A stretch of 64,000 bases of DNA, taken from the sequence record PV648359. One strand, written 5' to 3'. Below, piece after piece: positions 10,382 to 11,311 of the stretch. The notes under the pieces are model-generated. The model searched no databases. It was not told where the DNA came from and was given only the letters and a program-made list of their open reading frames with translations. The position numbers and the translations under genes are program-made. The number at the start of each line of letters is the position of its first letter. The stretch's first letter is position 1. This DNA comes from Escherichia phage LF82-1.

Positions 10382-11041
10382 CTATAGCTTAAAACAATCA
10401 TCGCGTTCATTAATCCAATTTCTTATAGTTTTTGCGGATACGTTAAAGAATTCGGCAGCGTAATCGTAGTGGTTAAATTCATGACTTTTAATAGAAATAT
10501 CCACAAATACAAATTTCTTACCTTTATTAGAATTCTTTCTAATTTTTGCTTTATGCTCTTCTGATAGTTTTCTACCTTTAAGATGAGAATCTCTATTTTT
10601 ATAAAACTTTTTATTTGCTATAGATTTGTTTTCTCGATGTTCTTTAGATTCTTTAGAACCTAATTTCTTTTTAGATATTTTAGCCCGAACTTCTTCAGTC
10701 ATACCAGCTTTTGTCTTTTCGGATAACATCTCACGATACCAAGGTTCCTTTAAAGCTACTATAACAGGATTACCCTTACCGCCTAAGGCTGCATTATAAG
10801 TATCTGTTCTCATGACAAAAGCCTCGTCAACTAGTTCGGCTTCCTTAGCATACATCTCTTCAGATGTTTCGAAATTGAAAAGGATTTCCTTTTTAAAATT
10901 CTCTAAACCGTATTTCTTTATGGATTTTACTATGTTAACCCCAGAACCCATATAAGAATCGTTAACATCTGTAGTGGCATGGGCTCCAACATAAATCTTG
11001 TTATTAATGAGATTGGTTATTTTGTAAATTAAATAATTCAT
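10382..11041 (-). CDS. GIY-YIG homing endonuclease (Seg-like, at the T4 segD position)
   Basis: 219 aa; N-terminal YLIYKITN...IYVGA GIY-YIG motif; lysine-rich C-terminal DNA-binding region; located between genes 23 and 24. Confidence 0.8.
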   Translation of the reverse strand: MNYLIYKITNLINNKIYVGAHATTDVNDSYMGSGVNIVKSIKKYGLENFKKEILFNFETSEEMYAKEAELVDEAFVMRTDTYNAALGGKGNPVIVALKEPWYREMLSEKTKAGMTEEVRAKISKKKLGSKESKEHRENKSIANKKFYKNRDSHLKGRKLSEEHKAKIRKNSNKGKKFVFVDISIKSHEFNHYDYAAEFFNVSAKTIRNWINERDDCFKL

Positions 11042-11044
11042 ATT

Positions 11045-11311
11045 TTACGCTGCTTTGACACGACGGTTGATGATATCACGGAAGTTGATACGATTTTCTT
11101 GGATTTTCAGCCAGTTACCAGATTTGTCTTTGGTATGGGTAGAGTATTCACCATTCCACCAGAAGTCAGTTTCATAAGCCAGGGCTTCGTATTTCTTAAC
11201 CAATGCATTAACTGCATTACCGTTAGGATTGGTACCAAATTTTTCTACCAGGGCTTTGATATCTTTATCAAGAGCGGAAAGTGTAGTACGGATAAAGTTT
11301 AACTTGTTCAT
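11045..11311 (-). CDS. hypothetical protein, possibly translationally coupled to the downstream endonuclease
   Basis: 88-aa ORF; stop 3 nt before endonuclease start; early-type promoter upstream. Confidence 0.5.
   Translation of the reverse strand: MNKLNFIRTTLSALDKDIKALVEKFGTNPNGNAVNALVKKYEALAYETDFWWNGEYSTHTKDKSGNWLKIQENRINFRDIINRRVKAA

Follow-up and report, generated by a model that had tools for sequence, protein, structure and literature searches.

Layout of the region between genes 23 and 24

The window (the whole stretch of DNA analysed, 64,000 nucleotides) represents the beginning of a Mosigvirus genome. Over the 1121 nt considered here, it is 100 % identical to Escherichia phage LF82-2 and its siblings, and in the LF82-2 and sibling records the two ORFs that lie between the capsid genes 23 and 24 are annotated as 'homing endonuclease', here referred to as seg, and 'hypothetical protein', here referred to as ORF88. 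The features of the region, with the basis for each in brackets, are listed in window coordinates.

8756–10324, + strand: gene 23, major head protein (522-aa ORF; annotated as major head or capsid protein in identical and related records)
10352–10373, no strand assigned: G+C-rich terminator-like hairpin of 9 pairs, common to the convergent gene 23 and seg/ORF88 units; right-hand flank of the insertion
10382–11041, − strand: seg, very probably a SegD-type free-standing GIY-YIG endonuclease, 219 aa (ORF list, T4 SegD identity, PHROG 314)
10387–11044, − strand: inserted segment, approximately 658 nt (alignment of seven loci with seg and six or seven without it)
11042–11044, − strand: AAT spacer of 3 nt, separating the ORF88 stop (TAA) from the start codon of seg (sequence)
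11045–11311, − strand: ORF88, small resident early gene, 88 aa, phrog_6003 (PHROG 6003, 1.2e-48)
11045–11065, − strand: cluster of substitutions specific to loci with seg, at the end of ORF88 (locus alignment)
11319–11324, − strand: GAGGAG, Shine-Dalgarno sequence of ORF88, 7 nt upstream of the start codon (read from the sequence)
11341–11369, − strand: sigma-70/T4-early-type promoter TTTACA-17-TACTAT with an upstream TG (promoter scan)
11377–11384, + strand: T4-type late promoter of gene 24, TATAAATA, divergent from the early promoter (read from the sequence)
11412–12695, + strand: gene 24, capsid vertex protein (427-aa ORF; so annotated in related records)

All of the elements named in the first-pass annotation are in place, and its description is exact to the base. 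On the minus strand, the junction of ORF88 and seg reads GCG TAA AAT ATG, and the 3-nt gap between the ORF88 stop and the endonuclease start that had been reported in the first-pass annotation is correct. The same annotation credited the pair with an early promoter of its own, abutting the late promoter of gene 24. An early-type promoter is present, with 7 nt between TATAAATA and its −35 element, but it belongs to ORF88 and is retained in phages that do not carry seg. No other sigma-70-like site was found between positions 10200 and 11500, the one at 11369–11341 (minus strand) standing alone.

The number of copies of gene 24 varies among the relatives. Tandem paralogues, 24a and 24b, are found in five Dhakavirus/Gaprivervirus loci, and there is one copy in the window and in T4.

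Identity and integrity of the seg product

The 219-aa protein is 57.5 % identical to T4 SegD over the full length (tblastn, 100 % coverage) or 59 % identical when aligned using MAFFT, and the record for phage IME08 names its copy of the same seg allele segD. The protein is also matched by PHROG 314 'homing endonuclease' (1.9e-53), by homing-endonuclease models in PADLOC (1.8e-22 and 8.4e-20) and, end to end, by TIGR01453 'group I intron endonuclease' (7.3e-15; 55.6 bits, with the cut-off at 56.05). As a single sequence, it scores under the gathering thresholds of the Pfam GIY-YIG models, with 16.2 bits for PF01541 (cut-off 22.6) and 20 for PF19835 (cut-off 25), and a phmmer search of the PDB with the single protein gave no matches. 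A profile built from seven SegD-family proteins was needed to detect PDB relatives. This profile matched structures of I-TevI, the endonuclease of the T4 td intron, in both the catalytic domain (1MK0, 6.1e-5) and the DNA-binding domain (1I3J), where profile positions 147–217 correspond to I-TevI residues 41–110 (E=6.5e-8). Residues 156–213 of the seg product also have weak matches to HTH and NUMOD3 Pfam models.

The order of domains is a catalytic domain (approximately residues 1–95), a basic linker and a C-terminal helix-turn-helix DNA-binding domain, as in T4 SegD. The GIY-YIG motif is at the N-terminus and consists of LIY (residues 4–6), 10 further residues and YVG (residues 17–19). Y6, Y17, G19 and N83 align with Y6, Y17, G19 and N90 of I-TevI, and E67 is one alignment position off E75. 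The two-domain architecture is shared with I-TevI, and the catalytic domains (1MK0/1LN0) and the C-terminal helix/helix-turn-helix domains (1I3J) can be aligned. However, I-TevI is encoded within an intron and seg is free-standing, and alignment gaps show that the seg product is without the Arg27 helix segment and the zinc finger of I-TevI. As nothing in any SegD-family protein, T4 SegD included, can be aligned with the Arg27 segment, the gap is, from the family alignment, a SegD-family trait and not a lesion in the window copy, and the catalytic residues of I-TevI are accordingly accounted for in part. The identity to T4 SegD and the library and I-TevI profile matches bear out the earlier identification of a Seg-like GIY-YIG endonuclease encoded antisense to the late capsid genes 23 and 24.

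The seg ORF is intact in all seven of the loci examined that contain it. Relative to the window copy, dN/dS values are 0.08–0.24 overall and 0.03–0.09 for the catalytic domain, and comparison of these sequences indicates that seg is under purifying selection. The first-pass annotation had considered that the catalytic residues might be mutated, leaving a pseudo-endonuclease, and the intact ORF and low catalytic-domain dN/dS do not agree with this. A broader version of this explanation, in which the 219-aa ORF would be the decayed remnant of an endonuclease and the 88-aa ORF would have arisen by chance, is hardly credible. The sub-threshold Pfam scores and the failure of alignment to find a counterpart of I-TevI Arg27 could be cited in its favour, but the Arg27 segment is missing family-wide, Y6, Y17, G19, E67 and Y82-N83 are invariant across the seven SegD-family members, down to 34 % identity to the window protein, and the dN/dS values for the catalytic domain are those of a maintained protein.

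The C-terminal half of seg (window positions approximately 10382–10740, codons approximately 100 to the end) is mosaic. The IME08 and 04086 copies are 94–100 % identical to the window copy over the first approximately 300 nt and 67–84 % identical thereafter, dS rises from 0.13 to 0.75–1.34 between the halves, and there is a 12-nt insertion near the helix-turn-helix. This pattern of divergence suggests exchange of the DNA-binding domain. Relative to T4 SegD, the C-terminal half is likewise more diverged (dN 0.51) than the catalytic domain (dN 0.18).

ORF88 and the site of insertion

Fourteen loci were aligned, seven with seg and six or seven without it. In all of the aligned seg-less phages, TATAGAAACAAG and the hairpin come immediately after the ORF88 stop codon. 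In 7/7 loci with seg, approximately 658 nt is found at an identical point, reading TAA-AAT-ATG at one end and AAG-CTA-TAG/AAACAAG at the other, and this insert begins immediately behind the ORF88 stop and ends just short of the common TATAGAAACAAG flank. The distance between genes 23 and 24 is 1087–1103 nt with seg and 417–437 nt without it. The insert consists of little more than the seg ORF and contributes neither a promoter nor a Shine-Dalgarno sequence, and TAAAATATG at the junction is invariant in all seven loci. A comparison across T-even genomes had been proposed earlier as a way to look for presence/absence polymorphism, and such polymorphism was found: seg is present in 37 of the 119 records that contain ORF88, with the same junctions in each of the seven aligned. 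The count of 37 is obtained using a DNA coverage of at least 80 % and, independently, using a protein identity of at least 80 %. Taken together, the identity of the protein and the architecture of the insertion make it very probable that the 219-aa ORF is a SegD-type GIY-YIG cassette inserted between the ORF88 stop and the terminator hairpin. It is thus an already annotated, known kind of selfish element in its known slot, and the locus has little importance beyond annotation.

The last five codons of ORF88 are GTC AAA GCA GCG TAA, or a close variant, in loci with seg, whereas they are GTT AAG ATT GCA TAG in loci without it; one of the five changes the amino acid. The sequence GTCAAAGCAGCGTAA is exact in five of the seven loci with seg, with close variants in UP19 and 04086, and the other version is present in 6/6 close seg-less loci. 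On sequence comparison, this cluster is a candidate for a homing site that has been disrupted or rendered immune, or alternatively for the left boundary of a co-conversion tract. The signals upstream of ORF88 are shared. The GAGGAG Shine-Dalgarno sequence is retained in 13 of the 14 aligned loci, GTTTACA in loci both with and without seg, TACTAT in all aligned loci except VR7, and the TTATTTATAAA block at the late promoter in all 14.

As tblastn matches in the seg-less phages reached only residues 1–72 of ORF88, replacement of its C-terminus by the insertion was considered. This was ruled out because both alleles encode 88 aa and are collinear, with approximately two amino acid differences.

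ORF88 matches PHROG 6003 (E=1.2e-48) over its whole length, with residues 1–88 on profile positions 1–88 of 90. It is a typical member of this family, showing no differences from it, and the family has no assigned function and no structural relative in the PDB or BFVD. The copy in VR7 is VR7ORF190c, recorded as similar to JS98 ORF173c. Using tblastn, ORF88 was found in 119 phage records, which represent Mosigvirus, Dhakavirus, Gaprivervirus, one Tequatrovirus (GEP001) and an Acinetobacter phage, the last at 39 % identity. The earlier alternative that ORF88 is not conserved in any relative can be set aside on this distribution. As dN/dS is 0.06–0.14, ORF88 is a real gene, and its retention down to 39 % identity also counts against a chance ORF, as does a homologue in the same position by gene 23 on a metagenomic contig. 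This homologue, P0013, was detected only by profile search (E=7.7e-6) and lies directly beside gene 23, in antisense orientation. A second metagenomic homologue, P0005, is 76 % identical and lies between genes 24 and 23. Because both sit by gene 23, ORF88 is regarded as an old resident of the 23/24 slot. An exhaustive search of 1.84 billion representatives with ORF88 gave 13 matches, of which approximately five are genuine small homologues, and the long multi-stretch matches look like repeat or chimera noise.

The earlier description of the 88-aa protein as lacking a recognisable motif holds. In Pfam there was a chance-level match to DUF5380 alone (E=0.17), and NCBIfam and PADLOC returned nothing meaningful, with no defence-system or nuclease-partner model matched. 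The AlphaFold model (pLDDT 75) has two long helices, a β-hairpin and a C-terminal helix. No relative of this model was found in the PDB (best E=0.9), and BFVD gave a single match with E≤0.001, to an unnamed protein of 88 aa with 39 % identity, which is probably a member of ORF88's own family. We flag ORF88 as a conserved small early gene for which no fold or function match was found.

The 5′ end of ORF88 in the window (11260–11311, AAGTTAAAC...TCCGCTCTTGATAAAGAT) is of the type found in IME08, Bp7 and GEP001, and is unlike that of ATK47 and mobillu, which are Mosigvirus phages carrying seg. In most relatives an upstream in-frame ATG would extend the ORF to 93 aa, and the absence of this ATG from the window supports the 88-aa start.

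The 3-nt gap between stop and start, the single common promoter and the junction that is invariant in all seven loci with seg could indicate that ORF88 and seg form a two-gene module, in line with the earlier reading of the two as a pair, in which ORF88 would act with the nuclease in specificity, immunity or regulation. However, in 82 of the 119 records ORF88 is accompanied by the same promoter, Shine-Dalgarno sequence and terminator but not by seg, and SegD-like genes occupy the 23/24 slot without ORF88 in T4 and in Cronobacter phage leN. Moreover, apart from its last five codons, ORF88 is no more diverged in phages with seg than in those without it, and no defence-system or nuclease-partner model matched it. 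We consider a module very unlikely, and largely refuted already by the distribution. As each gene occurs without the other and the promoter, Shine-Dalgarno sequence and terminator, which are unchanged in phages that lack seg, belong to ORF88, the two are independent. On this comparative evidence, seg is a passenger on the ORF88 transcription unit, and the two genes are neighbours sharing a promoter rather than a functional pair. The 'hypothetical protein' beside the endonuclease is a landing pad, not a partner.

The segD gene of T4 is also in the 23/24 slot (PMC2988022), antisense to the capsid genes, and the promoter and Shine-Dalgarno region upstream of it is collinear with that in the window. 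However, T4 has no ORF88, and the segD ATG is found in the alignment column of the ORF88 ATG, whereas seg in the window is downstream of ORF88, 3 nt from its stop, and lacks a Shine-Dalgarno sequence. In Cronobacter phage vB_CsaM_leN, a SegD-like gene (locus positions 401–1039) that is 51 % identical over 78 % of the query is co-directional with the capsid genes. As this gene is in the same slot in the opposite orientation, the 23/24 slot appears to recruit the SegD-like family repeatedly and in either orientation. Escherichia phage GEP001, a Tequatrovirus, has ORF88 (locus positions 2501–2767) and not segD in the slot, and both occupants therefore exist within the genus of T4. The slot thus offers a natural allele series, consisting of ORF88 alone, ORF88 with seg, seg alone (T4) and seg reversed (leN). 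Comparison across the series may help to explain why homing is reportedly not seen with T4 SegD and to establish whether it occurs with the Mosigvirus/Dhakavirus allele.

Expression and mobility of seg

No purine-rich Shine-Dalgarno sequence was found in the 20 nt upstream of the seg start. A start codon that is a few nucleotides from an upstream stop and is without an independent ribosome-binding site is the arrangement expected of a translationally coupled pair, and TAA-AAT-ATG, the presumed coupling junction, has this form. The simplest reading of the arrangement is that transcripts started at the ORF88 early promoter would read through into seg, which would be translated, most likely at a low level, by termination-reinitiation at TAA-AAT-ATG. 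A hairpin that sequesters the ribosome-binding site, as in I-TevI (PMC2988022), is not found in seg; the possibility that the seg start is hidden in this way was ruled out because the RNA fold predicted at the junction is weaker than those of shuffled sequences (z=+1.24).

The promoters specific to endonucleases in T4 are middle or late and never early (PMC2988022), whereas the promoter available to seg is of the early type and comes from the upstream resident gene, which is a minor departure from the T4 set. If correct, expression from an early promoter via termination-reinitiation would be a mode not represented among the T4 homing endonucleases. For segD of T4, no promoter had been identified as of a 2010 review (PMC2988022). 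We note that in the T4 locus retrieved for comparison TTTACA-17-TATTAT with an upstream TG precedes segD (locus positions 2443–2471, + strand of the locus; 10 of 12 matches) and is collinear with the ORF88 early promoter. In other respects seg resembles SegA–C, SegE–G and MobE of T4, which are intergenic selfish genes that use the signals of their neighbours, show presence/absence polymorphism and have short co-converted flanks (PMC2988022).

Evidence bearing on mobility comes from the Dhakavirus phages that carry seg (UP19, 005, IME08 and 04086), compared using sliding-window identity over approximately 3.5 kb. Their genes 23 and 24 are mostly 90–100 % identical to those of seg-less Dhakaviruses and approximately 50–80 % identical to those in the window. 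In these same phages, seg, or at least its first 300 nt (the 5′ half), is 90–100 % identical to seg in the window. The points at which identity switches fall in the last approximately 100 nt of ORF88 and, on the other side, no more than approximately 100 nt beyond the hairpin. This cross-genus pattern of identity is what nuclease-initiated gene conversion with short co-conversion tracts would be expected to leave behind, though general recombination could also give rise to it. During a mixed infection with a seg-less relative, the enzyme would be expected to cleave the recipient DNA in or close to the unoccupied site, and repair of the break by recombination would bring in the cassette along with short tracts from either side of it, as the comparative pattern suggests.

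From the sequence comparisons, the chance that seg is actively homing is roughly even. T4 SegD reportedly does not home, and active homing of seg is therefore not to be assumed; the T4 enzyme is also reported to have the same cleavage site in phages with and without segD. One alternative is that seg encodes an active site-specific nuclease that has lost homing, as a stranded or domesticated SegD like that of T4, and persists via linkage to the essential capsid genes or in some other role, e.g. marker exclusion, with ordinary homologous recombination accounting for the patchy distribution. The reported T4 precedent is consistent with this, as are the mosaic C-terminal halves of seg and the mosaic 5′ ends of ORF88, which indicate frequent general recombination. 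Purifying selection on seg shows the protein to be of importance without revealing the reason. However, the insertion point is the same in two genera, the boundaries of the tracts around the cassette are very sharp and the tracts short, and there is a block of substitutions specific to the loci with seg at the junction. As nuclease-initiated gene conversion produces all three, they count against a loss of homing, which we regard as possible but rather unlikely.

A more specific proposal can be made only tentatively. The last five codons of ORF88, the stop and TATAGAAACAAG may constitute the homing site, which would be destroyed by the insertion and 'immunised' by the substitutions, with seg expressed early by termination-reinitiation and, unlike T4 SegD, actively homing. 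Should active homing and an immune site both be correct, the enzyme would be expected to cut only seg-less DNA, at or near GTTAAGATTGCATAGTATAGAAACAAG.

Several observations were made on related genes and records. In the record for ATK47 (GenBank accession number KT184309.1), gene 24 is labelled 'homing endonuclease', which looks like an annotation error, and the true seg and ORF88 were left unannotated. The record for phage 04086 contains an intact seg ORF of 223 aa that is likewise without annotation. The 64-kb window contains no second copy of seg or of ORF88. A weak match to the linker of the seg product led to a 213-aa ORF at window positions 43854–44495 (minus strand), which includes HHIIPKCLGG...N...H and several NUMOD3-like repeats and, from these motifs, looks like a free-standing HNH (Mob-type) homing endonuclease.
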